Assembly: GCF_056712565.1 (NCBI RefSeq)
Contig: NZ_CM160072.1
DNA length: 64,000 nt
Strand: one strand, 5' to 3'
The stretch's first letter is position 1, and the number at the start of each line of letters is the position of its first letter. Below are positions 4,925 to 45,457 of this stretch, in pieces. A program made the translations under genes and the position numbers. The notes beneath the pieces were generated by a model. The model searched no databases. It was not told the DNA's origin and saw only the letters and a program-made list of their open reading frames with translations.

Positions 4925-5818
4925 TTATTTTTTTGCCTTTTTAGCGGCGAAATACGGCGTCCAGTCACCAGTTTCCAGCGCCTTGGCTTTCAATTTGTCG
5001 AGGTTGTTGATTACTGCGCCGTTGCTCCCCTTAACCGTCGGGGTTGTGGCTGCCGTGGTTTTTGCTTTTGGCATGATTCTGGCCTTCGATTCGATACGTT
5101 CCAGCAGACGACCAATTGCTACGGGGTTGGTAGCTTCTGCCAGTTGCTTGCGCAGTTCAGCGTTGCGACCAAGCGCCAGAACAACGATTTCCGGCTTCTC
5201 TGACTCAAACAGGATCGCGTTTTGTGTCTCGATGGGGATTTCCTCGAGTACGGCCTGCTCAGCTTCCTGATAGCCAGGAACTTTGAGAGCCTTAACACGT
5301 TGCTGATATTTGGATAATCGCTCTTGATAGGCAGCCTGAAGCTCCTGCTCCTTCTGCTTGCGAGCCATCTCCTGTTGCTGGTACTTGCCATTATCCTCTG
5401 CCCACTTAGCCATGCGTTGCTGGTAGATTTCTTCATCGAAACCGATGTCCTCATCATCCAGTTTTGGCATTCGCGGTGGTTGAGTGATTACCGGCTGCTG
5501 CTCGACGGGTTTCTGAGACTGACGCATCAGCTCTTTCAGCTCGCGGTCTTTCTCTTTAATCGTCTTGCGCAGGTGTTTTACCAGTCCATGCTCAGCGCCA
5601 TCTTCGCTGGTTGGCGAATCCAGCTTTTCGTCACCAAAGTAGAATTCCTGTTCTGATTCGTCGTCATCAGTTTCAGTAGCCTCCTCTGCATCATTGCCTG
5701 AGGACTCACTGCCATCTTCTGTTTCGACTTTTTCAGCCAGTTCGACATCATCAGGAATCTGCTCTGACGCGTCGGTTTCGATTTCAACTTCTGGTGTGTT
5801 TTCTGCCATCTGGTCCAT
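4925..5818 (-). CDS. Scaffolding protein (P22 gp8-like)
   Basis: 297-aa ORF, highly acidic N-terminus and charged helical composition, between portal and coat. Confidence 0.7.
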   Translation of the reverse strand: MDQMAENTPEVEIETDASEQIPDDVELAEKVETEDGSESSGNDAEEATETDDDESEQEFYFGDEKLDSPTSEDGAEHGLVKHLRKTIKEKDRELKELMRQSQKPVEQQPVITQPPRMPKLDDEDIGFDEEIYQQRMAKWAEDNGKYQQQEMARKQKEQELQAAYQERLSKYQQRVKALKVPGYQEAEQAVLEEIPIETQNAILFESEKPEIVVLALGRNAELRKQLAEATNPVAIGRLLERIESKARIMPKAKTTAATTPTVKGSNGAVINNLDKLKAKALETGDWTPYFAAKKAKK

Positions 5819-5908
5819 TTGTTACCCCTGTTTACTCGATGTTCAGCCCATCGGAAGGCAATAGGGTGCCAGGCCTCATAAAGACAGCCATTGCACGTTA
5901 TGGGTTAA

Positions 5909-8107
5909 TTACTGCTGTGGTTGTTGCTGAGTTGATTTTTGCAGGATGCTGCTGATGTCCATGCGCTGCGCATGGCCCTGTGCCTGACTTTTCAGGACAA
6001 GCTCTGCATCAGCACGGGCATTGTCTCCTTGCTGTTGCTGGAACTGTCCGAGCAGTTTCAGAGCCTCGCGGATATCAGATTTCTGCTGGCTATCGGCAGA
6101 TGCGAGGATTTTCACAACATTTGCCGCTGCAACCTGAGCATCAGTCTGTGCCTGGAATGCTTTAACCTGAATGGCTGCCTGCTCGTTCTGCGCTTTCTGC
6201 AATTCAGCCTGACCAGCAAGAAGCTGACCTTGCGCAGCAACCATAGCCGGATCTGGCTGACTGGCCTGTTGTTGTTTCGCCTGCTCAACCATCTGCTGTT
6301 CTTCTGGCGTTCTCGGCTTGATAACTCCAGACAGAAGCAACTGATTGCGGTTGTATTCTTTAAGGTCGTCCATCCCTTCGCCGTCCATATTGTCGAGGAT
6401 CATCGACGATACAAGGTCGTGTTTCGGCGTTCCGGGCGGGATAAGTGCCAGCATGGAAAGTAACGACTTAACCGTTGCGTCACGGCGAGTAGCGAACGAC
6501 TGACCGACATCGACAGTCACTTCATAGTTACCCTGCGAAAGGTCGTTAAGCGCGATAACCTGCCCTGTCTGACGGTCAACCACTTCACCAGTCATCAGCG
6601 CCACGTCATCGCTGCCGTCCTCATTAACGATACGCATCGGCGTATCGCTGCCATAGACTTCACGAGCCATAGAAAGCCACACAACGCCAGCGCGACGCAT
6701 GGATTTAGCCATGTTGTCCATGTAGATATAGGACTGCGTATCCATCCGGTTAAAGATGCTATCAACGGTATCGGTAGCAACGTTGCTCGGCATGTTCTCA
6801 AGCTGCGACGCACCTGTAATTTGCTGAATAGCCGTTCCGGTGTACTGCAATAGCCCGGCAAGAGCTGGAGGCATTTGTGTCGGAGGCGTATAACTGCTGA
6901 CCTGAGCCTGCGCAGTAATATCTCCGTTTTTGTTTTTCAGACTGACCATCGGCAGGAACGCCGGGCGCTTTTTGTTGCGCTCCGCCCAATGAGTGGCGAG
7001 AGGACCAGGAATCATGTCAACATCAACTACAGGAATGCCATCACCGCCAGCCTGAGTAGCGTTATCTGCAATCATGGAAACCATCAGGTTCTCAAGACGC
7101 TGTGCATCCATCGCTTTTGCTGCGTGGCCTTCGATTCGTTCCTGATTATCAACAAATGAGCGACGTCCATATACCGGGATGAGAGGAATATGTTCGCCCG
7201 GAATACGCTTCGGTTCTTCCAGCCATTCAGCGCCAGACAGAAGGCCGCAATAAACGCGGCGTTTCTTCACCGTTCGCTCGCCAATCAGTTCGAATGCACC
7301 ATCGGTCAGCTCGTCGACAATATCTTTGATTTGCTCTTCATCATAGATTGCCGTTTCTCCGCTAACAGGGTTGCGCCATGCCGTGAGCTTCACCTTCTCT
7401 ATGCGAACTTCGTAGTAGCGCCCAACATAGATGGCATCTGGCGTTGACCAGTCATATTGAGTGCCAGTCTCATCACGAGAAAGGCCTGCCGCGATGGAAT
7501 CAGGGTATTCAGCCTCGAACGCTTTAGGCGTCATGGAGAACATTTCCATAGCCCACATAGCATCAGAACGGTCATATTGCTTGCTGTCCTGATCGAAGAA
7601 GACGCATGTCGCTGGGTCGTAAACAGGAAGAAGGCTGATGCGTCGCTGCTCGTTACTTGGGTCCATTTCATCTTCGTAATCGGCACACATGCGGAAACAA
7701 CCGAATCCGCCCGTTACAGCATCATCAAATGCGTTATCACACGCTTCGCCACCTGATGTTTCCTGATAGTCAGCGCGGAATTTGCCGTTCATCTTTTTGG
7801 CTAACGCTTCCGATGCCTTGTCATCCTTCGGCCTGAATTTAACGCTGATGCGATTCTGTCGATACTCGCCAATGATGCGATCACATTCACGGGCAATCTT
7901 ATTCAGTTCAAAGCGCGGGTAATGCTCAAACCTGCCTTCATCAAATGAGTAACCAGCGTTTGTGCTGCCTTCCCACTGTGCGCCGGATACCCGGACGAAA
8001 CGTTGAGCCTCAATAATCTGCTCACGCATATCCTGCGTTGCTGACCAGGCATTATCAAAGTTGCACAGCACCTTGCGATGCCAGTCAGTCATCTTTTTTT
8101 CTGCCAT
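5909..8107 (-). CDS. Portal protein (P22 gp1-like)
   Basis: 732-aa ORF directly downstream of TerL; long Gln/Ala-rich C-terminal helical tail as in P22 portal barrel. Confidence 0.85.
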   Translation of the reverse strand: MAEKKMTDWHRKVLCNFDNAWSATQDMREQIIEAQRFVRVSGAQWEGSTNAGYSFDEGRFEHYPRFELNKIARECDRIIGEYRQNRISVKFRPKDDKASEALAKKMNGKFRADYQETSGGEACDNAFDDAVTGGFGCFRMCADYEDEMDPSNEQRRISLLPVYDPATCVFFDQDSKQYDRSDAMWAMEMFSMTPKAFEAEYPDSIAAGLSRDETGTQYDWSTPDAIYVGRYYEVRIEKVKLTAWRNPVSGETAIYDEEQIKDIVDELTDGAFELIGERTVKKRRVYCGLLSGAEWLEEPKRIPGEHIPLIPVYGRRSFVDNQERIEGHAAKAMDAQRLENLMVSMIADNATQAGGDGIPVVDVDMIPGPLATHWAERNKKRPAFLPMVSLKNKNGDITAQAQVSSYTPPTQMPPALAGLLQYTGTAIQQITGASQLENMPSNVATDTVDSIFNRMDTQSYIYMDNMAKSMRRAGVVWLSMAREVYGSDTPMRIVNEDGSDDVALMTGEVVDRQTGQVIALNDLSQGNYEVTVDVGQSFATRRDATVKSLLSMLALIPPGTPKHDLVSSMILDNMDGEGMDDLKEYNRNQLLLSGVIKPRTPEEQQMVEQAKQQQASQPDPAMVAAQGQLLAGQAELQKAQNEQAAIQVKAFQAQTDAQVAAANVVKILASADSQQKSDIREALKLLGQFQQQQGDNARADAELVLKSQAQGHAQRMDISSILQKSTQQQPQQ

Positions 8108-10433: not shown

Positions 10434-11045
10434 TTAATTGGTGAGTCCGGGGATTACGGTTTGCCCGTGCTGTTCAAGGCGTTCAATTCTCGCCAGTAGC
10501 TGAGGCTTCTTAATTTTTCCCCAGCGATTAAGCAGGCGGCCTGACATGCTGGCAACATCCTTCTCTTTCATGTACTCCAGCATTACGGCATTTCTCTCTT
10601 CTTCAAATTGACGATGACCAACCTGAAGCATGGCGTACATCCAGTTGAATGCGTTGATGTAAGCAATTTTGATACGCATTGCTTCTTTTTTGGTGTAGGA
10701 CATAACCAAAAGCATCAACCCATCCTTGCGGAGACGGTAGAATTTTTGCGGCTTACCATTCTGTAACTCATTGTTTTTATAGCAAAGCTCAAAGTTGAGC
10801 TTTGTATCAAACTCAGGAGGGCAAGCTTCTATGGTTCGTTCAATGTCACGAACCACGTTCTTCGGCAGCTTTCCAAATGCTTTTGCCACCATAAAAGAAT
10901 CTGTAACCGGATCGTTGTTTGCTACAAAAATTAGGTCTCTGAAATCTATATCGTTAACAACGGTTGGGTAGTTCATTGCGTCTTTACCTTTTAGAAAGAT
11001 GAGCCTGTTCGCACAGAAAAGCCGCCCCGAGATGGTCGCCACCAT
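10434..11045 (-). CDS. Rha-family phage regulatory protein (late-region copy)
   Basis: 203-aa ORF; N-terminal segment resembles Rha/ORF6N DNA-binding domain; true start may be internal ATG at 10976. Confidence 0.55.
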   Translation of the reverse strand: MVATISGRLFCANRLIFLKGKDAMNYPTVVNDIDFRDLIFVANNDPVTDSFMVAKAFGKLPKNVVRDIERTIEACPPEFDTKLNFELCYKNNELQNGKPQKFYRLRKDGLMLLVMSYTKKEAMRIKIAYINAFNWMYAMLQVGHRQFEEERNAVMLEYMKEKDVASMSGRLLNRWGKIKKPQLLARIERLEQHGQTVIPGLTN

Positions 11046-11123
11046 ATACGGCAGTTCTCAGGCTCAGCTTTCTGAAAGACTCGGGATTGTTACGCGCTGC
11101 GATGCGCGGTTTACTGCAGATAT

Positions 11124-11147
11124 AAAAAAGCCCCGCGAATGCGAGGC
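11124..11147 (-). terminator. Hairpin plus U-tract downstream of lysis cassette
   Basis: Minus strand GCCTCGC-ATTC-GCGGGGC followed by TTTTTT. Confidence 0.4.
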
Positions 11148-11321
11148 TAAATCCTGGTATTTGTAATGACTGGCTCTTATCTCAACGCAGCCCCTTACCG
11201 CGCGCCAGATGCTCAATATCAAGCATCAGCAATGAGATGTTTAATCTGGATTCACTCCAGAAGTGATCACCACCCTGTCTACAGAGCCAGATGTGAAGGA
11301 TGATGAGTAAAATTATCGCTA

Positions 11322-11759
11322 TCATCGAAGGCATTGCGTCCTGATGTACTCCTGCAGGTAGTTAACCTGCGCGGTTATCCTGTCGATTCCACTTCGGAGA
11401 CGGTAATAATTGAGTTCAGCATCTGCTGTAAGTCTTGGGTTTTCTCCATCGCCCATGCTGCTGGCTCCGGTCGTTGACTTTGCACAGGTGGCGGCGACTT
11501 GCAGGCGCTTACGCCCAGCAGAAACATCAGCACGGAGACTTTCGATAGTCGCGTTAGCATCAGCAAGCTCCTTTGTGTATCTTGCGTCGAGTTCTGCTAC
11601 ATCACGTTGACGCTTCCGCATATCAGCGATGATGGATGTGGCTTTATCGCGCTGCTCTTTGTAGGCGATTGCATTATCACGGTAATGATTAACAGCCCAT
11701 GACAGGCAGACGATGATGCAAATAATCAGAGCGGAGATAATCGCGGTGACTCTGCTCAT
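11322..11759 (-). CDS. Rz: Spanin inner-membrane subunit Rz
   Basis: 145-aa ORF with N-terminal TM segment and coiled-coil body; ATGA overlap with R stop. Confidence 0.85.
11375..11566 (-). CDS. Rz1: Spanin outer-membrane lipoprotein Rz1, embedded in Rz in a different frame
   Basis: ORF nested in Rz with signal peptide, lipobox (VSAC) and proline-rich stretch. Confidence 0.7.
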
Positions 11760-12232
11760 ACCTCAATCTCTCTGACCGTTCCGCCAGCCTCTTTGAATTT
11801 TGCAATCAGGTTGTCAGCCTTATGCTCGAACTGACCATAACCAGCGCCCGGCAGTGAAGCCCAGATATTGCTGCAACGGTCGATTGCCTGACGAATATCA
11901 CCGCGGTCAATCATCGGTAAAGCGCCACGCTCTTTAATCTGCTGCAATGCCACAGCGTCCTGACTTTTCGGAGAGAAGTCTTTCAGACCAAGCTGCTTAC
12001 GGTAGGCATCCCACCAACGGGAAAGAAGCTGGTAGCGTCCGGCGGCTGTTGATTTGAGTTTTGGGTTTAGCGTGACAAGCTTGCGAGGGTGATCGGAGTA
12101 ATCAGTAAATAGCTCTCCGCCTACAATGACGTCATAACCATGATTTCTGGTTTTCTGCCGTCCGTTATCAGTTCCCTCTGACCACGCCAGCATATCGAGG
12201 AACGCCTTACGTTGATTATTGATTTCCACCAT
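11756..12232 (-). CDS. R: Endolysin (lambda R-type lytic transglycosylase)
   Basis: 158-aa ORF matching recalled lambda R sequence and length. Confidence 0.9.
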
Positions 12233-12539
12233 CTTCTACTCCGGCTTTTTTAGCAGCGAAGCGTTTGATAAGCGAACCAATCGAGTCAGTACCGATGTAG
12301 CCGATGAACACGCTCGTTATATAAGCGAGATTGCTACTTAGTCCGGCGAAGTCGAGAAGGTCACGAATGAACCAGGCGATAATGGCGCACATCGTTGCGT
12401 CGATTACTGTTTTTGTAAACGCACCGCCATTATATCTGCCGCGAAGGTACGCCATTGCAAACGCAAGGATTGCCCCGATGCCTTGTTCCTTTGCCGCGAG
12501 AATGGCGGCTAACAGGTCATGTTTTTCTGGCATCTTCAT
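12216..12539 (-). CDS. S: Holin/antiholin (lambda S-type, dual start)
   Basis: 107-aa ORF beginning [22 protein letters not shown]..., near-identical to lambda S as recalled; GGGGG Shine-Dalgarno within upstream hairpin. Confidence 0.95.
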
Positions 12540-12664
12540 GTCTTACCCCCAATAAGGGGATTTGCTCTATTTAATTAGGAATAAGGTCGATTACTGATAG
12601 AACAAATCCAGGCTACTGTGTTTAGTAATCAGATTTGTTCGTGACCGATATGCACGGGCAAAAC

Positions 12665-12694
12665 GGCATGAGGTTGTTAGCGCAACCTCATGCC
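12665..12694 (-). terminator. Candidate tR'-like terminator between late promoter region and S
   Basis: 12-bp perfect stem (GGCATGAGGTTG/CAACCTCATGCC) with 6-nt loop, followed on minus strand by GTTTTG. Confidence 0.45.
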
Positions 12695-13135
12695 ACCCGC
12701 TTTCACGAAGGTCATGTGTAGAAGGCCGCAGCATAACTATCACTGATGAATTCAGGATAGCCAGTGGCTACGGCTCAGGTTGGGTTGTGGCGGTCGGTGC
12801 TGAACTCCGACTTAATGACGATAGGCGTGTACCGACGCCTCGTTTTACTTCCTCCGCTTTCACGGCTTCACCCTAGACCAGCTTTACGAAATCCTCGTAA
12901 ACCTAACCGCGGCAGATATGACCGGCACGGTGTGCCATATCACGGACCGGCGGGTGTCTCGTTCACCTGATTAACGCATCAGCCTGCGTATTCACCACAA
13001 CGATAAGAGTACTGCGCGGCACCTTTCACCAATTCCGCGAGGTCTGCGGGTTCAATGCTCTTACCTGTTGTGCAAACAAAAAAGCCACCGTTGCAACTTA
13101 AGAGTCACTAACGGCAGCTTACCTTCTAATTATGG

Positions 13136-13654
13136 CTAAATGGATAATTGCATGTCAAGGTTTTTAACAGCAACATGCTTAACTTTCTCAACACGTTTAC
13201 GCATTTTGAAAGCATTTTGCATTGGCTGGTATAAAACAAATAATGACGCTTTCAGGATGTCGTCAATTTCGTTTCTACAGGTTGCCAGTGAAGGTTTTCT
13301 CCATCCCTCGCCACCACGTCCACACATCTTGCGTGGCTTTGCAGTCGCGTGATAGTAGGATGCAATTGCTCGCTTAGATGAACCATGAGCGTAGTAGCTG
13401 AGGAGGATGCCAAAGGCTTTCTTGTCAATGTACATGACGGAATCAACGACCTGAGAAATCAACATTCCATCATCATCATTACACATTGGCCTTGTCATAA
13501 TTCTTCCCGGCTCTACGCTCTCCATGAACTTCGCTATTACGCTGCTCATGCGCTTTTCCAGACGACCTGAATAAACCCATGCGCCCCACAGTTCAAGCCA
13601 GCCATTCAGCCACTCGTGCTGCTCTTTGGTGAGGTTTAGTTCTCTTATGCTCAT
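13136..13654 (-). CDS. Q: Late antiterminator Q (phage 82/quuD-like family)
   Basis: 172-aa ORF with WGAW and CxDDD motifs recalled from Q82-type proteins; last gene before late region. Confidence 0.75.
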   Translation of the reverse strand: MSIRELNLTKEQHEWLNGWLELWGAWVYSGRLEKRMSSVIAKFMESVEPGRIMTRPMCNDDDGMLISQVVDSVMYIDKKAFGILLSYYAHGSSKRAIASYYHATAKPRKMCGRGGEGWRKPSLATCRNEIDDILKASLFVLYQPMQNAFKMRKRVEKVKHVAVKNLDMQLSI

Positions 13655-13839
13655 CGTCTTCCCCTCTTGCCTTGTTTGACCATCAGGACGCCGTTAACTA
13701 TTACGTGACGCTCGCCTTTGCTGTCTCGGTTGTACTTGAGCACTGTTCCTCTTGCGCAGGAAAGCATCCTCGCCACTTCGGTCTGATTGCCTCGTGTCTG
13801 GATAAGAAGCTCTGGTATCGTTTGAATTGTGGCGTTCAT
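13651..13839 (-). CDS. ninH: NinH
   Basis: 62-aa ORF with GNQTEVAR...RGTV motif matching recalled lambda NinH; overlaps Q start. Confidence 0.8.
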   Translation of the reverse strand: MNATIQTIPELLIQTRGNQTEVARMLSCARGTVLKYNRDSKGERHVIVNGVLMVKQGKRGRR

Positions 13840-14198
13840 GCGTTCTCCAGTTCGGTGATTTTTATTCCAAGCCGTCCGCCTGGTACTTTCACACCACGAA
13901 TTACGCGAATGTCATCGAATTGCTCGTCGTCTTCCGCAAATCCGGCGTGGATAAGGGAGTCGAGTAAACCTTTCAGGATGTTGTCGAGGTCGCGGCGGCG
14001 GGAGTCTGGAACGTCTGCGATGACTTTGATACGGAGTCGTGATTTGGTGAAAATGTCTAACTTGAGTTGGCGGATGATTTGCTGAACGTCTTTTCGGTAT
14101 TTCTGGCCTTTATCGCTTATGTAATATTGGCTTCCCCGTCTTCGCCAGTAGGTATTCACCGACGGCGGGTATGGAAGCACAAACTGATATTCGTTCAT
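13836..14198 (-). CDS. rusA: Holliday junction resolvase RusA
   Basis: 120-aa ORF with PPSxNxYxR, DxRRRDLDN and GGRL motifs of RusA. Confidence 0.85.
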   Translation of the reverse strand: MNEYQFVLPYPPSVNTYWRRRGSQYYISDKGQKYRKDVQQIIRQLKLDIFTKSRLRIKVIADVPDSRRRDLDNILKGLLDSLIHAGFAEDDEQFDDIRVIRGVKVPGGRLGIKITELENA

Positions 14199-14485
14199 GA
14201 CTTAATCTTCCCCTCCCTCAGCAGTATCGCCTGCGTTCTGATCACGCCTTCGAGGTGGTAAAGTCTGGCGTCTTTGTTGTCGAGATTATGGGTGCGTCGG
14301 TCGATTTCATCGTGACACGCACTACAAGCCCATGCACCGATCAGGTCGTCAGGCTTCATTCCCGTTCCGCAAATTCCAGCCATCCGGTAATGTGCCAGAA
14401 CTGTAGTTTCAGGGTTGCCATTGCATACGCCGTAAATACGTACCTGACATTCTCTTCCGCGCGCTTCTTTGCGTAGGTTAGCCAT
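14195..14485 (-). CDS. YbcO-like DUF1364 protein (putative nuclease)
   Basis: 96-aa ORF, Cys/His-rich, resembles recalled DLP12 YbcO; overlaps neighbours by 4 nt. Confidence 0.6.
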   Translation of the reverse strand: MANLRKEARGRECQVRIYGVCNGNPETTVLAHYRMAGICGTGMKPDDLIGAWACSACHDEIDRRTHNLDNKDARLYHLEGVIRTQAILLREGKIKS

Positions 14486-15207
14486 TAAGCAGCCTCCCCT
14501 GTTACTTTCAGCATTCCGTTATCGAGCAGCTTTCTGGTCAGCCACTGTTGACCACGCCCGGTGATTTTTGTGGTGAACGATATCTGTATTCCGTGATTTG
14601 TGTTGACCGCTGTTTCTTTCACTGTGAAATAGCCGCGATCCATATATTCCTGCATTGGCACATTGCGCCGGGAACCTGAAGCAATAAGGATTTTGTGATC
14701 ACGCATCCACGCAAACAGTTTGTTTTGACCAATACCAACAACCTTTGCAAAGTTTCCAATCAAAATTCCGCTGGCCTCGCCAACGCGATCGGCAAACTCA
14801 ACTTTAGGTGCGACAATTGCGAGCTGGTTTTCCAGTTGCATTTTCTGCTCAGCAAGATCGGCAGCAAGGCGCAACGCTTCCGGTAGCGTTTTGGGGATAT
14901 TAACCGCAGCTTCTTCAAGCTCTCGCCAGCGGTCAACAAGGCGAGCGGTGAACTCTGGCGACAACTGGGCAACAACGACAATACTGTCTCGCTTACCTTG
15001 TTCGCCCTCGAAGACGTAATGCTCGTACTGAACATTGAACCCTAAGTTATTGATTCTTTCGGAAACCTCAATTTGAGGAAGCCGGATAACACCATTTTTA
15101 GCCAGCGTTTCGATGGTACGTTTCACATTGTCATGACGCTTACCAACCAACTCAGCAATTTCAATGCTTGTCATTTTGATGGCATTGCCATTCATTAACT
15201 CATTCAT
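14485..15207 (-). CDS. Rha-family regulator / antirepressor-like protein
   Basis: 240-aa ORF; N-terminus MTSIEIAELVGKRHDNVKRTIE is a typical Rha domain. Confidence 0.75.
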   Translation of the reverse strand: MNELMNGNAIKMTSIEIAELVGKRHDNVKRTIETLAKNGVIRLPQIEVSERINNLGFNVQYEHYVFEGEQGKRDSIVVVAQLSPEFTARLVDRWRELEEAAVNIPKTLPEALRLAADLAEQKMQLENQLAIVAPKVEFADRVGEASGILIGNFAKVVGIGQNKLFAWMRDHKILIASGSRRNVPMQEYMDRGYFTVKETAVNTNHGIQISFTTKITGRGQQWLTRKLLDNGMLKVTGEAA

Positions 15208-17003: not shown

Positions 17004-17210
17004 TTAACTCACAAAACGCCACGCCACTTTTGCTACGACAACAGGCATAACACCGATAATCACCCACAGAAAAATGCTACCGAAAAGCACACCAACCAGG
17101 TCTTTACCTTCGCCTACCAACCGGACAAAACTGCTGGCAACCACAATGAACGTCGCCACCATCCACATAGCACCGAGAATCCTCAATGCAGAAAAAATCA
17201 ACTCAACCAC
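17004..17210 (-). CDS. Small membrane protein (68 aa, GTG start)
   Basis: Two hydrophobic helices; first gene after tR2-like terminator, in the position of lambda ren/ninA. Confidence 0.4.
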   Translation of the reverse strand: MVELIFSALRILGAMWMVATFIVVASSFVRLVGEGKDLVGVLFGSIFLWVIIGVMPVVVAKVAWRFVS

Positions 17211-17224
17211 GATTTACCCTCCCC

Positions 17225-17257
17225 CAAATAAAAAGGCCTGCGATTACCAGCAGGCCT
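17225..17257 (-). terminator. tR2-like rho-independent terminator after the helicase gene
   Basis: Minus strand AGGCCTGC-8 nt-GCAGGCCT followed by TTTTTATTT. Confidence 0.6.
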
Positions 17258-17282
17258 GTTACAAGCTCAGTGATGTAGATGG

Positions 17283-18659
17283 TCATACGTCAGCCCCTTG
17301 TGCATATCGTCTGCCACGCGCAGCAGGTGCATTTGATGCTGTGCAAATCTGTCTGGCTTCATCCTGGTCACATGCAACAAAGTGTCCGTTGCAGAACCGC
17401 TGGTAAACCGTACCAAGTGAGCCAAAACGGTTTTTCGTCACGATGATTTCAGCAAATGGCGCGGCGCTACTGTTCTCGTCATATACCGCTTCCCGATAGA
17501 GCATGATGATTGAGTCTGCGTCCTGTTCAATGCTTCCTGAATCACGCAAATCTGCGTTTGTCGGGCGTTTGTTTGGTCGCTTCTCAACATCGCGTGAAAG
17601 CTGACTCAGGGAAATAACCGGTGTTTTCAGGTCTTTCGCCATCGCCTTCAGGCTTCCGGAGATGTGAGCAATTGCGAGGTCGTTGCGGTCTGCTTTCGGC
17701 TTCTCAATCAGGCCAAGATAATCCGCCATGATGAGTGAGAGGTTTGGATTTTCCTGTTTGTGCCGTTCTGCGATTGAGCGTATTTCTTCGACCGATAATC
17801 GCGAGGCATCGACTACCCATACATCCAAATCTGCAAGCTGACTCATGCCGTTAGCAACACGTGCCCAGCCCTCGTCATCCATCGATGCAGGATTTCGCAG
17901 TACGCTAACCGACATCCTCCCGGCGTTGGCAATGCTTCGCTCTGCAATCTGCAATGCGCTCATTTCCATTGAGAAAATCAATACCCCGCGCCGGACGTCA
18001 GAACCAGGAATAACGCGGCTTGCAACGCCTTCGGCAATCTTCAGCGCCAGTTCGGTTTTCCCCATACCAGGACGAGCAGCGATTATCACCAGGTCTTCCG
18101 CGTTCATCCCTCCGGTGATGGCATCAAGTTCTTCGATTCCGGTCTTCAGGGTATCGGACTCTTCTCCGTTCCTCAGACGCCTGTCAAGCGTGTCAGTGTA
18201 GTCGGTGATGATTTCCCCTAACCGTACAGGTTTAACCTCGTCACGGGGCTTTCTGATGGCTGAGAGACGTTTTACAAGTTCATCCATCGCCTGACTCGAT
18301 GCGTCGATGGTTCCGCTTTGGATTGGTTCACGCATTTCATCCATGATTTCCAGCACCAGACGGCGGTGATAGTTATCCGCGACCATTCCGGCATATCCCT
18401 TCAGGTTTGCGGCGCTCGGGCAGTTTTTGCTGGTCATCAGGATTGACGTGAAATGCTCCTCTCCGCACGCCTCGGCAACCATCAGCGCGTCGATTAGGTT
18501 TCTGTTTCTCGCCTGCTTCCGGATAACCTCGAAGGCTTTCCGGTAGAGCGGAATTGAAAACGCTTCCGGCTCCAGCGTTGCAAGAACGTCACTGGCGGTT
18601 GGAGTTAATCCACCAATCAGCAGGCCACCGATAACGCTCGCTTCGATATCCTGTCTCAT
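17283..18659 (-). CDS. Replicative DNA helicase (DnaB-like, P22 gp12-type)
   Basis: 458-aa ORF with Walker A (ARPGMGKT) and DnaB C-terminal domain motifs; overlaps O-like gene. Confidence 0.9.
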
Positions 18660-27179: not shown

Positions 27180-28115
27180 TTATGAAGTGGTTTTTACCTG
27201 TTCTCTTAACCAAGTAATAAATGCCTCAATTTTTGGCCACTGCCTGCCCGGTAATGTAGTGATGTAATAATGCTGATGGCATTTCACCGTCATATCGCCA
27301 AACGGCGCGACGAGCTCACCACTGGCAAGCCTTTTTTGTACCAGACGTTTCCTTCCCATCGCCACCCCAATATGATTCATCGCGGCGATAACGGCTAAAT
27401 CAGAGCGATCAAAGCCAATTCCAGAAGATGTCGGCAAATTAACCGCATAATGTTGCGCCCAACTATGCCATTCATCCGTACCGGAGTCGTTGCTCCATGC
27501 CTGTCTGTCATGGAGCAACGTACAGTGACGCAGGTTAATTACCGTGTTGGTTAAATCATGTCTATGAGCGTACTCCGGGCTGCAAACTGGCAGGATTTCT
27601 TCATCCATCAGAAAGTGATGAGCCAATTGCGCTGACGGCGCATCATCAAAGTAGATCGCCAAATCGATTCCGGCACGTTGCAAATTGACATTGTCATTAC
27701 CAGTGAGCACGGTGAGCGAAATAGACGGATATCGGCGTGTAAAGTCACCTAATGCGGGCACCAACCAGCATTGGGCGATAGAGGGCCGGGAATACAACGT
27801 TAACGTTCCCGATAACTCCTGATTTTTGATATCCAGAATTTCCTGATTCAGGGTATCCAGCGACGATTTTAGCGCCCAATAAACACGTTTCCCCTCGTGC
27901 GTTAATTCCACTTTGCGATGGGAACGAACAAACAACTGAATACCTAATTCTTCTTCCAGCTGATTGATACGGTGACTTACCGCACTGGGGCTCAGCGACA
28001 ATTCCTCTGCCGCAAGGGCGAAGGACTGATGCCTGGCAGCCACTTCAAAAGTATGCAGTTTTGATAGTTGCCAGCCGTTAAGCAGTCGATTTCTTATTTC
28101 ACGAAGGGGTTCCAT
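27180..28115 (-). CDS. dsdC: LysR-type regulator of D-serine utilisation
   Basis: ORF matches recalled DsdC (start MEPLREIRN at internal ATG); divergent from dsdXA. Confidence 0.95.
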   Translation of the reverse strand: MEPLREIRNRLLNGWQLSKLHTFEVAARHQSFALAAEELSLSPSAVSHRINQLEEELGIQLFVRSHRKVELTHEGKRVYWALKSSLDTLNQEILDIKNQELSGTLTLYSRPSIAQCWLVPALGDFTRRYPSISLTVLTGNDNVNLQRAGIDLAIYFDDAPSAQLAHHFLMDEEILPVCSPEYAHRHDLTNTVINLRHCTLLHDRQAWSNDSGTDEWHSWAQHYAVNLPTSSGIGFDRSDLAVIAAMNHIGVAMGRKRLVQKRLASGELVAPFGDMTVKCHQHYYITTLPGRQWPKIEAFITWLREQVKTTS

Positions 28116-38507: not shown

Positions 38508-39653
38508 TTATGATGAGAACTCCTGGCGAATTTGTTCCCCATGCTGGTCGAGCGTTGCCGCTCCCGGCATAACATGCGGGTCCGCGCAGCCGCTGATTTT
38601 TATCGGATTACCCGGCATCATTATTCCCCCGGCTTCAATCAACATATTTCTCGCCTGAGTTTGTGGTAAATTAATGGCCTCAGCCACACTTAATAACGGC
38701 GCGACGGGCACACCAACTTCATGTATTCTGGCTAACCAAACTTCAGCTGCCTGCGTTTTTAACGTCCGCTCAATATATTGTTTAAGAATAGCCTGGTTTT
38801 GTACGCGTAAAATATTGCTGCTAAATCGGGGATCATTAACCAGTTCTGTAAGCTCCAGTGCCTGGCATAACACAGAAAAAAGCTTGTCATTACCACAACA
38901 AATCGTAATCGGCTTATCCTGAGTATCGAAAACATCAAAAGGTGCCATGTAGGGATGGCGATTTCCCAGGCGTTGTGGTGACTTCCCAGTCGCGATATAT
39001 GCCATCAGTCCATGCTCCAGAAAACTCAGAGTGGCATCAAACATCGCTATATCGACATGCGCCCCTCTCTGGCTCTTTTCGCGGCCATAAAGTGCACTCA
39101 CTATTCCACTGAATAAATAAACACCGCCACAGAGATCCGCAAGAGAGGTACCAACGCGCACTGGCGGAGCATCAGGGTATCCTGTTTCCATCATTATCCC
39201 GCTCATTGCCTGAATGATGGTATCGTAGGCAGGAGCATCTTTTAGCGGACCGGTATGTCCGAAACCTGACGATGAAGCATATATAAGGCGCGGGTTGATT
39301 TCTTGTAGCGTTTCCCATGAAAACCCCAGTTTTTCCATTGTACCTGGGCGAAAATTCTCAGCTAATACATCCGCTTGTTTAAGCATATTTATAAATATAC
39401 TTTTATCGTGATCATTCTTTAAATCAAGAACCACACTCTCTTTGCCATGATTAATAAAACTGTAATAGAGTGACTGTCCATCCACATAGGGACCAAATGT
39501 GCGGGTATCATCACCATGACCCGGCGGCTCAACTTTAATTACCCTTGCACCCATATTACAAAGAAGTTGAGTTCCGAAAGGCCCATTAAGGACATGCGTC
39601 ATATCGATAACTAATAAGCCTTCAAACGGCCCTTTGCATTCATTATTTGTCAT
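38508..39653 (-). CDS. yfdE: Acetyl-CoA:oxalate CoA-transferase (family III)
   Basis: ORF matches recalled YfdE; start at internal ATG (381 aa). Confidence 0.85.
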   Translation of the reverse strand: MTNNECKGPFEGLLVIDMTHVLNGPFGTQLLCNMGARVIKVEPPGHGDDTRTFGPYVDGQSLYYSFINHGKESVVLDLKNDHDKSIFINMLKQADVLAENFRPGTMEKLGFSWETLQEINPRLIYASSSGFGHTGPLKDAPAYDTIIQAMSGIMMETGYPDAPPVRVGTSLADLCGGVYLFSGIVSALYGREKSQRGAHVDIAMFDATLSFLEHGLMAYIATGKSPQRLGNRHPYMAPFDVFDTQDKPITICCGNDKLFSVLCQALELTELVNDPRFSSNILRVQNQAILKQYIERTLKTQAAEVWLARIHEVGVPVAPLLSVAEAINLPQTQARNMLIEAGGIMMPGNPIKISGCADPHVMPGAATLDQHGEQIRQEFSS

Positions 39654-42488: not shown

Positions 42489-43739
42489 TCAGATGGCGTG
42501 GTTTTGCTTCATTGCAGCAATTTCATCGTCGCTATAACCCAGCTCCTGCAATACAGCAGCGGTATGTTCACCTAATAGCGGCGCAGCTTTAATATCCGGC
42601 GTAAAGGCAGAGAATTTCATTGGACAACCAACTGTCAGATATTTTCCACGCAACGGTTGTTCCACTTCGACAACACTGCCACTTTGGCGCAAAGAGGGAT
42701 CAAGTGAAATTTCTTTCATACTTAAAACCGGTGCACAAGGAATATCAAACTGAGTCAAATAGGCCACCGCTTCATGTTTATCAATAGTGACAGTGTATTT
42801 TTCGATTTCAGCAAAAATATCGAAAATATGTGGCTGTCGGGCATGGGCTGTACTGTATGCCGGATCGGTAATCCATTCTGGTTTGCCGATGGCTTTACAG
42901 GTGTTTTCCCAATTTTGCTCCTGAATAGTGAAATAAATATAGGCGTTAGGATCGGTTTCCCAGCCTTTACATTTCAGGATCCAGCCAGGCTGACCGCCCC
43001 CACCCGCATTACCACCGCGGGGAACTGCATCACCAAATGTGCCATTCGGATACTGCGGGTATTCTTCCAGATAACCCAATTTATCGAGACGCTGCTGGTC
43101 GCGTAATTTCACGCGGCAAAGGTTCAACACGGCATCCTGCATTGACATGGTGACTCGTTGCCCACGCCCCGTTTTTTCGCGATGCAGCAAAGCAGCAAGT
43201 AAACCGATCAGCAAATGCATTCCGGTGTTGCTGTCACCCAACGCTGCAGCGCTTACCAGCGGCGGACCGTCCCAAAAACCTGTAGTAGATGCCGCGCCAC
43301 CCGCTGCCTGAGCAACGTTTTCATAGGCTTTTACATTCACATAAGGCGAACACTCATCAAACCCTTTGATCGAACCAAAAATCAGACGTGGATTGATTTC
43401 TTGAATATGCTCCCAGGTGAAGCCCATATGATCAATGGCCCCTGGATGAAAGTTCTCGACTAAGATATCAGCTTCGCGGATCAGCTTTTCCATTACCTCT
43501 TTGCCTTCCGCTGTTTTGGTATTTAATTCAATAGAACGTTTGTTACTGTTAAGCATGGTGAAGTAAAGCGCATCGATATCAGGAATATCTCGCAGCTGGT
43601 GGCGCGTTACGTCACCAACGCCGGGACGTTCAATTTTAATGACGTCAGCGCCAAACCAGGCCAGCATTTGAGTACAAGATGGGCCAGATTGCACACCGGT
43701 GAAATCGAGAACTTTAATTCCTTGAAGTGGAGTTGACAT
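42489..43739 (-). CDS. frc: Formyl-CoA:oxalate CoA-transferase
   Basis: 416-aa family III CoA-transferase ORF upstream of oxc. Confidence 0.95.
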
Positions 43740-44250
43740 AGCAATACCTATTAGTTAATTAAATATGTGTTAATTTAGCGTTTATTTAAGGCATAACGCC
43801 TCTATAAATAATCTGCAAAATATCGTCGTAGCTGCACTCGAAATTTTTAAATTCCTGTATCAAGTGCTGAAAATCATTTCATCGCTACTTCCAATTCCTT
43901 TCTGCATGGTAAGTAGTGAGGACGAAAAGAAGAATATAATAAATATTGGCTCGCGGTAATCAGAGAGAGCCGCGACATTTGTGATGTTATTCTTACAACT
44001 GTAAGAAGTGTCAGTGATTTACAAGTAAGGTTATGATTACACTATTTAAAGCGTACCATAAAATATAACATAACAAATGATTTGTGATAATATGGGATTA
44101 TTGCGGTTTACTTTGAGGAAGATAAAATGCGAGTTTATAGAACCGCGAGCGCCAAATAATTTTATGACCACAACCTGTCGTATTGTGGTCATAAAAAATT
44201 GTCGACTGGAGGGAGTTAAATCCTTTACCTCAATATATTGCCTGTCAGGT

Positions 44251-45181: not shown

Positions 45182-45457
45182 ATGAAAGTAAACTTAATGC
45201 TTTTTAGCTTATTTTTATTGGTCTCTATTATGGCATGCAATGTTTTTGCATTTTCTATTTCTGGTGGTGGTAGTGAGGCGAGCTATAAAGAGACAGAAAA
45301 AACGTCAGCGATGACGACAACTCACTCTACAAAAATTCAGCCATCACAGGCGATTTTGTTAAAAATGAGAGAAGATGCGCCACCATTAAACCTCACAGAA
45401 GAAATTCCGCCCCCTTTTCCGACAAAGGCGAATTATCTTATCCATCCTGTGCGATAG
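45182..45457 (+). CDS. ypdI: Lipoprotein YpdI
   Basis: 91-aa ORF with signal peptide and lipobox (MAC); K-12 synteny. Confidence 0.7.
   Translation: MKVNLMLFSLFLLVSIMACNVFAFSISGGGSEASYKETEKTSAMTTTHSTKIQPSQAILLKMREDAPPLNLTEEIPPPFPTKANYLIHPVR

Follow-up and report, generated by a model that had tools for sequence, protein, structure and literature searches.

The window analysed here is a stretch of 64,000 nucleotides (64 kb) from contig NZ_CM160072.1 (assembly GCF_056712565.1) which begins within the prophage CUS-3, and our analysis concerns two regulator genes of this prophage, rha in the late region and roi in the nin region, together with a structured RNA leader located upstream of rha. It is very probable that rha and roi of CUS-3 are separately acquired modular regulators, which possess a distantly related N-terminal domain of the pRha type but different C-terminal modules, are situated in different operons, are non-redundant, and are inhibitory to lytic growth when integration host factor (IHF) is missing. 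The leader upstream of rha appears to lock the Shine-Dalgarno sequence of the gene and may be the only item in this region that is new.

The stretch around both open reading frames (ORFs) is 99.7% identical over 6 kb to record CP000711 (Enterobacteria phage CUS-3, Escherichia coli RS218), whose coordinates minus 12744 give those of the window, and both products are 100% identical to their CUS-3 counterparts. A first-pass annotation, made from the letters of this DNA, had described two Rha-family genes, one between the lysis and terminase genes and the other in the nin region. The two ORFs occupy 10434–11045 (203 amino acids) and 14485–15207 (240 amino acids) of the minus strand, and their placement is as described. 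The first lies downstream of Rz (11322–11759) and is separated by an 80-amino-acid ORF (orf80/hkbM) from the genes of the small and large terminase subunits (TerS and TerL). The second is embedded in tightly packed nin-type genes upstream of Q, in the order ninF, ORF, hkbD, rusA, ninH and Q. In CP000711 the nin-region gene is labelled roi ('DNA-binding protein') and the late-region gene is labelled 'hypothetical protein'. The two genes and their domains are as follows.

10434–10976, minus strand: rha coding sequence, 180 amino acids from the probable start Met24 (the RefSeq 180-amino-acid form; conserved ATG and Shine-Dalgarno sequence).
10638–10904, minus strand: Phage_pRha domain of Rha, residues 48–136 of the 203-amino-acid form (Pfam; 40% identity to the P22 Rha domain).
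10449–10604, minus strand: ORF11CD3 domain of Rha, residues 148–199 (Pfam, 91.1 bits; modelled as a helical hairpin).
14485–15207, minus strand: roi coding sequence, 240 amino acids (100% identical to CUS-3 roi, 87% to HK022 Roi).
14911–15174, minus strand: pRha-type N-terminal domain of Roi, residues 12–99 (Pfam, 36.7 bits).
14524–14832, minus strand: ANT/KilAC domain of Roi, residues 126–228 (Pfam, 113.5 bits; near-invariant in close homologs).
15013–15147, minus strand: variable patch of Roi, residues 21–65 (40% identity to HK022 Roi).

On profile, homology and positional grounds the late-region ORF is a bona fide Rha. The profile search proposed earlier for this DNA finds Phage_pRha (PF09669, curated Pfam cutoff 29.9 bits) above the cutoff in both ORFs, and in the late-region ORF the domain scores 76.6 bits and is accompanied by ORF11CD3. 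The same ORF scores 84.8 bits against TIGR02681, 'phage regulatory protein, Rha family' (cutoff 45.95), and matches phrog_518, 'Rha-like', with an E-value of 9e-82. Its full-length identity to the Rha/ORF201 protein of phage P22 is 53% (E 4e-71), and the whole architecture of pRha followed by ORF11CD3 is common to both. With phi80 Rha, which is without ORF11CD3, it shares 38% identity over the pRha domain, in an alignment of 165 residues (E 2e-30). Work by Henthorn and Friedman from 1995 reportedly deals with these two proteins, phi80 Rha and P22 ORF201/Rha. The rha genes of the window, P22 and phi80 all follow Rz/Rz1 immediately and precede the packaging genes, and an upstream terminator and leader are likewise common to them. 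The order endolysin, Rz, rha, orf80/hkbM, TerS and TerL is conserved in most of 80 related viral loci. The concern that profiles might show the late-region ORF to be unrelated to Rha is not borne out; Pfam, TIGR02681, the identity to P22 Rha and the position all relate it to Rha.

The rha gene is a mosaic. Within the pRha domain, its identity to P22 Rha and to phi80 Rha reaches only about 40%, so that the target sequence may differ, whereas ORF11CD3, in the last 56 residues, shares 95% identity with its P22 counterpart. At the level of DNA, identity to P22 rha is 47–68% in the 5' part of the gene and 91–98% from about nucleotide 480 onwards. An AlphaFold model of Rha (mean predicted local distance difference test score, pLDDT, of 83) consists of an N-terminal helix-helix-beta-hairpin followed by a long helical hairpin which spans ORF11CD3 (helices 97–142 and 146–170 in the 180-amino-acid form). 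A recombination junction is seen inside rha at around window position 10565 (minus strand), and the 3' portion of about 130 nucleotides beyond it, which covers ORF11CD3, is P22-like.

The nin-region ORF is, as judged from its identity to a published protein and from gene order, the named gene roi and not an 'Rha'. It is 87% identical over 240 residues to HK022 Roi (E 1e-156), which is of equal length, and the order ninF-roi-hkbD-rusA-ninH-Q is identical in the window/CUS-3 and in HK022. The start of roi overlaps the stop of ninF. Pfam assigns Phage_pRha and ANT/KilAC to the protein, and the overall architecture and position typical of Rha are not found in it, since ANT/KilAC stands in place of ORF11CD3 and the gene belongs to the nin operon.

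Even so, both classical genes of growth inhibition in IHF mutants, rha and roi, appear from sequence comparison to share one DNA-binding N-terminal fold. A search with P22 Rha detects the N-domain of Roi (E 1e-4), and Phage_pRha, ANT and ORF11CD3 are among the domains of the Bro network (PMC10111431). Several results weigh against this. The pRha score of Roi lies just above the cutoff (36.7 against 29.9 bits) and that of HK022 Roi, 25.2 bits, lies below it; the TIGR02681 profile does not match the nin-region ORF; and a comparison of the Roi and Rha alignments by hhalign, with an E-value of 3e-4, reaches a probability of only 40%. The AlphaFold model of Roi is unreliable (pLDDT 45, from a shallow alignment of 17 sequences), no solved structure matches Roi, and Rha has no significant match among solved structures either, the weak ones being winged-helix regulators. 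Because these structure matches are only weak, 'winged-helix-like' is a description of Rha that we infer. A sequence search of the PDB finds no relatives of Rha or of Roi. The assignment of the pRha fold to Roi is thus marginal, and the earlier description of two Rha-family genes stands for the late-region ORF but not for roi, with its ANT/KilAC C-terminus, its marginal pRha match and its lack of a TIGR02681 match.

Like rha, roi is a mosaic. Residues 21–65 are only 40% identical between CUS-3 Roi and HK022 Roi, whereas the remainder is 95–98% identical (98% in KilAC), and among 114 close homologs nearly all of the variation falls within this patch, which occurs in at least nine alleles, while KilAC is almost invariant. 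In the poor model, of which the N-terminal part is usable, the patch spans the second helix together with the beta-hairpin, and the hhalign comparison to Rha agrees with this; the model was not used for the KilAC domain. Such variability in otherwise near-identical proteins suggests that the patch, a putative recognition helix and wing, represents swapped DNA-binding specificity, and that HK022 Roi may possess a specificity other than that of CUS-3 Roi. The fold shared by the N-domains of Rha and Roi, and the focus of Roi variation in predicted recognition elements, are of modest added value.

The first-pass annotation had called the two genes divergent paralogs and suggested separate acquisitions, with possibly distinct targets. 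The pairwise alignment which it proposed gives no significant similarity between Rha and Roi (E 0.065), and 'paralogs' holds for one distantly related N-domain only, as detected by hhalign; elsewhere the proteins are unlike and their C-terminal domains differ. Both proteins do match Pfam Phage_pRha, as would be expected of recent paralogs with redundant function that arose by duplication within the prophage. We rejected this reading on the lack of pairwise similarity and regard it as exceedingly improbable, as the C-terminal domains are unlike (ORF11CD3 versus ANT/KilAC) and each protein has far closer relatives in phages with just one of the genes: P22 contains rha without roi, and HK022 contains roi, with a KilA-N plus P63C gene filling its rha slot. 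Separate acquisition has held up well. The lack of pairwise similarity, the occurrence of one gene without the other in these two phages and the internal mosaicism of both genes support the view that rha and roi are independently acquired mosaic modules and not duplicates. Because each would have arrived by separate mosaic recombination, the two genes are unlikely to be redundant, and it is plausible that Rha and Roi would have distinct sets of targets.

To carry several such genes is normal for a phage, and the pairing of rha with roi is common. Phage phiON-2011 has two annotated Rha-family genes in addition to ant-type genes, and Stx2_10902 encodes a Roi (81% identical) together with an Rha whose gene follows Rz (63% identical). 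Among 5,426 complete genomes of E. coli, matches to roi are present in 1,111, and at least partial matches to rha with its leader are present in 2,142. Both genes occur together, with the 4-kb spacing kept, in many of these genomes, where RefSeq names their products 'Rha family transcriptional regulator' and 'phage antirepressor KilAC domain-containing protein'. No third pRha-like ORF is present within the 64-kb window.

It has been reported that the founding Rha products block phage growth in IHF-deficient hosts (PMC4936722), and the annotation of phi80 rha reads 'DNA synthesis inhibition in IHF- hosts'. The first-pass annotation had ascribed this phenotype to Rha proteins. For the founding Rha proteins this agrees with the source and with the phi80 annotation; the phenotype is, however, not specific to Rha, because it also defines Roi, going by the title of Clerget and Boccard (1996) as cited in PMC3430580. 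By analogy with phi80 and P22 Rha and with HK022 Roi, both CUS-3 proteins would be non-essential DNA-binding regulators which inhibit lytic growth of the phage in a host without IHF. Their N-domains, pRha-type and possibly winged-helix-like, would bind DNA, each at its own targets, and the ORF11CD3 domain of Rha might act in oligomerisation or partner binding. With different C-terminal modules, the two proteins would act differently and are unlikely to be redundant. For the KilAC domain of Roi, the best experimental lead, by analogy, would be AriS of Listeria phages, in which KilAC down-regulates the host SOS response, whereas phage genes are the target of an N-domain that can be exchanged (AntA/B, Bro-N or pRha; PMC9043618). 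Roi, with pRha at residues 12–99 and KilAC at residues 126–228, corresponds to one version of these regulators, which are known from phages of Listeria and other Firmicutes (Azulay et al. 2022); they differ from Roi in host phylum, in their low sequence relatedness to it and in the location of Roi in the nin operon.

A promoter scan yielded nothing near rha on the coding strand, and inspection of the leader by eye revealed no conserved promoter, which weighs against any firm assignment of timing; because the scan came back empty, the timing of expression is something that we infer from gene position. On this basis roi, translationally embedded in the nin operon, would be expressed with the delayed-early genes, and rha, placed after Rz in the late operon, would be expressed late, at a low level and guarded behind the terminator and leader described below.

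Position also bears on whether one or both of the proteins are classical antirepressors, which inactivate a CI-type repressor of their own or of a co-resident prophage. We consider this doubtful. The families phrog_63, phrog_373 and phrog_20738 are labelled anti-repressor, KilAC occurs in proteins of the P1 Ant1/KilA type (PMC9043618), and trans-acting antirepressors are known from Gifsy prophages. Such labels, however, are propagated names and not tests, and the source records describe Roi as a DNA-binding protein and not as a repressor binder. In the late operon, rha would be expressed at a stage when induction of its own prophage has already been decided. Moreover, CUS-3 already has a dedicated antirepressor, the third Bro-network gene of this prophage, a P22-type ant (P22_AR_N plus P22_AR_C) located outside the window at record positions 5572–6495 beside two mnt genes. 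Neither P22_AR_N nor P22_AR_C, the domains of the P22 Ant type, was found in the two ORFs by Pfam. We therefore retain for Rha and Roi the role of DNA-binding regulators.

An IHF consensus is present inside roi.

15043–15055, minus strand: perfect IHF core consensus (AATCAATAACTTA) inside roi, on the coding strand (consensus scan).

This match to WATCAANNNNTTR is the only perfect IHF core match in the 64-kb window. In HK022 roi (5738–5750 of locus L002) the same codon position is likewise occupied by a perfect match, within a patch that is otherwise only about 60% identical in DNA, and in P22 rha (39835–39847 of L004) the 13-mer recurs unchanged at the homologous 'INNLG' codons. The rha of the window has a version with one mismatch, at a core position (10764–10776), the Stx alleles likewise have a core mismatch, and phi80 rha has no IHF consensus site. 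Part of the in-gene motif is, on codon comparison, a by-product of conserved N-N-x-L codons. The 1996 abstract of Clerget and Boccard is said to place an IHF site beside the Roi-binding site within HK022 roi, and the candidate site in CUS-3 roi fits that reported site. The in-gene consensus had also been considered as a feature of all pRha genes, and this idea was downgraded on account of the core mismatches, the phi80 gene without a site and the N-N-x-L codons.

The same motif is central to a reading of Rha and Roi as inter-phage weapons similar to BstA, which would block phage DNA replication while an in-gene site requiring IHF protects the phage that carries it, the IHF-mutant phenotype being then a failure of self-immunity. 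BstA, an abortive-infection protein of a P22-like prophage, combines a KilA-N-like DNA-binding N-domain, which belongs to the same network, with a C-domain. It blocks the replication of phage DNA, and its own phage escapes by means of a short DNA element (aba) inside the bstA gene (Owen et al. 2021, PMC8585504). The inhibition of phage growth by Rha and Roi only where IHF is missing, the wording of the phi80 annotation and the perfect consensus at the same codon in CUS-3 and HK022 roi, present also in P22 rha, fit such a scheme. Set against it are the core mismatch in the rha of the window, the missing site in phi80 rha and the partial origin of the motif in the N-N-x-L codons. Rha and Roi have domains other than those of BstA; BstA is expressed constitutively from the prophage, whereas rha would be late-expressed and translationally guarded, and no family of PADLOC-DB, a collection of defence models, matches Rha or Roi at E ≤ 0.01. 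Considering these points, a BstA-like function is unlikely, and regulation by DNA binding is preferred for both proteins.

The region upstream of rha first requires a decision on its start codon. The true start is probably Met24, at window position 10976 (180 amino acids), rather than the start at 11045, as comparison of the homologs indicates. Met24 is used by RefSeq/PGAP and by most homologs, the 180-amino-acid form belonging to a group of 705 members, and all leader types preserve its ATG and Shine-Dalgarno sequence, whereas the ATG further upstream is not kept as a start. The intervening 23 codons are out of frame in phi80-like leaders, owing to a length difference of 2 nucleotides, and contain an in-frame TGA in Stx-type leaders; PHROG and Pfam matches of the 203-amino-acid form begin at residue 23 or beyond. 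In the CUS-3 GenBank record, rha is 'hypothetical' and its start codon is probably wrong. Between Rz and the start of rha, the following features are present.

11118–11148, minus strand: intrinsic-terminator-like hairpin and T-run between Rz and rha (terminator scan; stem variants across leader types).
11093–11108, minus strand: small CGCGC/GCGCG hairpin between the terminator and the leader (four pairs kept in 22–23 of 23 sequences).
10971–11085, minus strand: structured leader RNA of about 115 nucleotides, whose 3' arm contains the rha Shine-Dalgarno sequence (covariance model R1, 134 bits).
10977–11045, minus strand: 23-codon N-terminal extension of GenBank CP000711 (frame not kept; probably a non-coding part of the leader).

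The phi80 record has a terminator annotated at the same place before rha. The pairs of the small CGCGC/GCGCG hairpin barely vary, which is evidence neither for nor against its structure. The leader itself is conserved in CUS-3, P22, phi80 and Stx phages, while the protein encoded downstream is only 38–63% identical. Its main element is a long-range helix formed by a 20-nucleotide inverted repeat (11078–11059 with 11007–10988, 90% complementary), the 3' arm of which extends into the Shine-Dalgarno sequence of Met24. The 53 distinct leaders fall into several types, in which the two arms covary with matched lengths (CTG/CAG, CTTG/CAAG and CTTTG/CAAAG). When 12 leader types were folded independently, the Shine-Dalgarno sequence was paired with an upstream CCUUU-like anti-Shine-Dalgarno sequence in all 12. 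A clear case of compensation is provided by CUUUC...AAAAGG in the window and CUAUC...AAUAGG in locus L085.

A covariance model, R1, was built from nine leaders. On the sense strand it recovers all rha loci, the reverse strand giving no more than weak echoes, and leader copies are found at 39537–39649 of P22 (L004), 43669–43780 and 45263–45358 of phi80 (L005), 17198–17312 and 18562–18673 of L006, and 1861–1977 of HK022 (L002). Pairing was scored at 28 pairs in two sets of distinct sequences, set 1 with 35 and set 2 with 50, against 500 shuffles; set 2 was gathered separately from viral contigs using the 3' arm only as search pattern, which misses leaders with a P22-type Shine-Dalgarno sequence. 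Standard pairs occupy 96.1% of cells in set 1 (shuffled 80.0%) and 94.4% in set 2 (shuffled 79.1%). Both sides have changed in 19 of the 28 pairs in set 1 (shuffled 12.2, slid at most 6) and in 21 of the 28 in set 2 (shuffled 12.4, slid at most 8). The covariation score is 0.483 in set 1 (shuffled 0.190, slid at most 0.089) and 0.418 in set 2 (shuffled 0.150, slid at most 0.077). The observed values were reached by none of the 500 shuffles in either set, for alignments that were fitted to R1 and sequences that are phylogenetically related. RNAalifold on plain MAFFT alignments recovered the helix only partly, owing to insertions and deletions, and the covariance-model alignment was used instead. 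The folding-energy z-score of the leader is only -1.4, and because this thermodynamic evidence is weak, the case for the leader is carried by covariation. The compensatory changes argue for a cis-acting helix that would sequester the Shine-Dalgarno sequence of rha. No match at gathering score to any Rfam family, IsrK included, was found anywhere in the window, and those at 10900–11400 are at chance level only (E ≥ 0.097).

Loci of the CUS-3 type differ from those of P22 and phi80 in about 140 extra nucleotides between the Rz stop and the terminator (window positions of about 11160–11320). Correspondingly, the gap from Rz to the start of rha is 349–350 nucleotides in the CUS-3 type versus 202–220 nucleotides in the other types.

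Copies of the leader are not confined to rha. They are also located directly before a P22_AR_N plus ORF11CD3 'ant' gene in Stx phages, before gene gp49 of phi80, and before the KilA-N plus P63C gene in the rha slot of HK022. For 66 elements in viral contigs, the ORF which starts at the 3' end of the element comes from more than 25 families. By Pfam these cargo genes include pRha plus ORF11CD3, KilA-N plus ORF11CD3, KilA-N plus P63C, KilA-N alone, X plus KilAC, a Roi-like pRha plus KilAC, T5orf172, HNH, a JAB fusion, a TerB-like protein and several small or unknown proteins, and they are mostly DNA-binding proteins of the Bro network. For 65 elements the sequence extends far enough upstream; a terminator-like hairpin precedes 50 of these by 20–66 nucleotides, Rz lies upstream of 23 of them, and tandem double cassettes are present at 4 loci.

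Such a spread of cargo raises the possibility that the conserved leader sequence is not a functional RNA at all and serves instead as a DNA recombination linker, or boundary, for swapping of cargo. For lambdoid genomes, with their mosaic make-up, the notion of conserved boundary sequences is well established, the CUS-3 record contains 'bsq' features, and the weak z-score of the folding energy is in keeping with such a role. A linker, however, has no reason to preserve pairing, and in the leader 19–21 of 28 pairs have changed on both sides with 94–96% of cells still paired, the controls being far lower. The matched length changes in both arms are likewise foreign to a linker, and G-U pairs together with the much lower scores on the reverse strand indicate an RNA of the sense strand. 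A role as linker in place of RNA is thus improbable; the two roles are not mutually exclusive and could coexist.

Taking the leader as a functional RNA, we propose with middling confidence that it belongs to an undescribed cassette, widespread in lambdoid and P22-like phages, in which a terminator and a leader of about 115 nucleotides that locks the Shine-Dalgarno sequence head a slot of the late operon and silence mostly Bro-type cargo (Rha, KilA-N, P22_AR_N and KilAC types, Roi-like ones among them) until a trigger arrives; misregulation of this cassette could underlie the IHF-dependent phenotype of Rha. The cassette would be the conserved head of a hypervariable accessory-gene slot, and the leader would hold down the translation of potentially self-toxic DNA-binding regulators from a late transcript that is abundant. 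Candidates for the trigger that would open the helix are a trans-acting RNA, processing by RNase III and a protein. The closest analogue described is IsrK-orf45-anrP of the Salmonella prophage Gifsy-1, where read-through of a terminator gives an mRNA with a sequestered ribosome-binding site before an antirepressor-like gene (Hershko-Shalev et al. 2016, PMC4825925). Both arrangements consist of a terminator followed by a helix-sequestered ribosome-binding site in a lambdoid prophage. They have no homology in sequence or structure, and the rha leader, unlike that of Gifsy-1, heads many cargo genes.

The pair of rha and roi is already known, since both are named genes of a published phage and are routinely annotated, and their pairing is ordinary. 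The finding of the pair as first stated therefore matters little, and the annotation, the shared fold and the leader cassette add modest value to it. No prior description of the leader was met in the literature searched, a weak sign of novelty given the incomplete coverage of that search. If the proposal is true and the cassette is undescribed, it would be a new class of cis-regulatory RNA. The leader is also the mark of a hot spot where accessory genes are exchanged in medically important phages (Stx phages, CUS-3 as a K1 phage, and P22-like phages), and the cassette makes the old question of how rha is restrained directly testable.

Some further leader copies stand before ORFs of 71–96 amino acids without a Pfam match and with a common C-terminal '...CQH' (11820–11913 of L115, 2289–2382 of L116, and in L120, L109 and L118); at two loci, such an ORF is followed closely, in tandem, by a second cassette of leader and cargo. 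The phi80 gp49 gene (45352–46080 of L005) and its relatives in L110, L132 and L145, also headed by a leader, form a family similar to gp59 of N15, with a conserved N-terminal part of about 80 amino acids and variable C-termini, one of which is a Prok-JAB domain.

The CUS-3 prophage ends at an attR near window position 27463, and the remainder of the window, from about 27464 to 64000, is not part of this prophage. Within it, a stretch of low GC content (39–46%) at about 32–46 kb may be another island.

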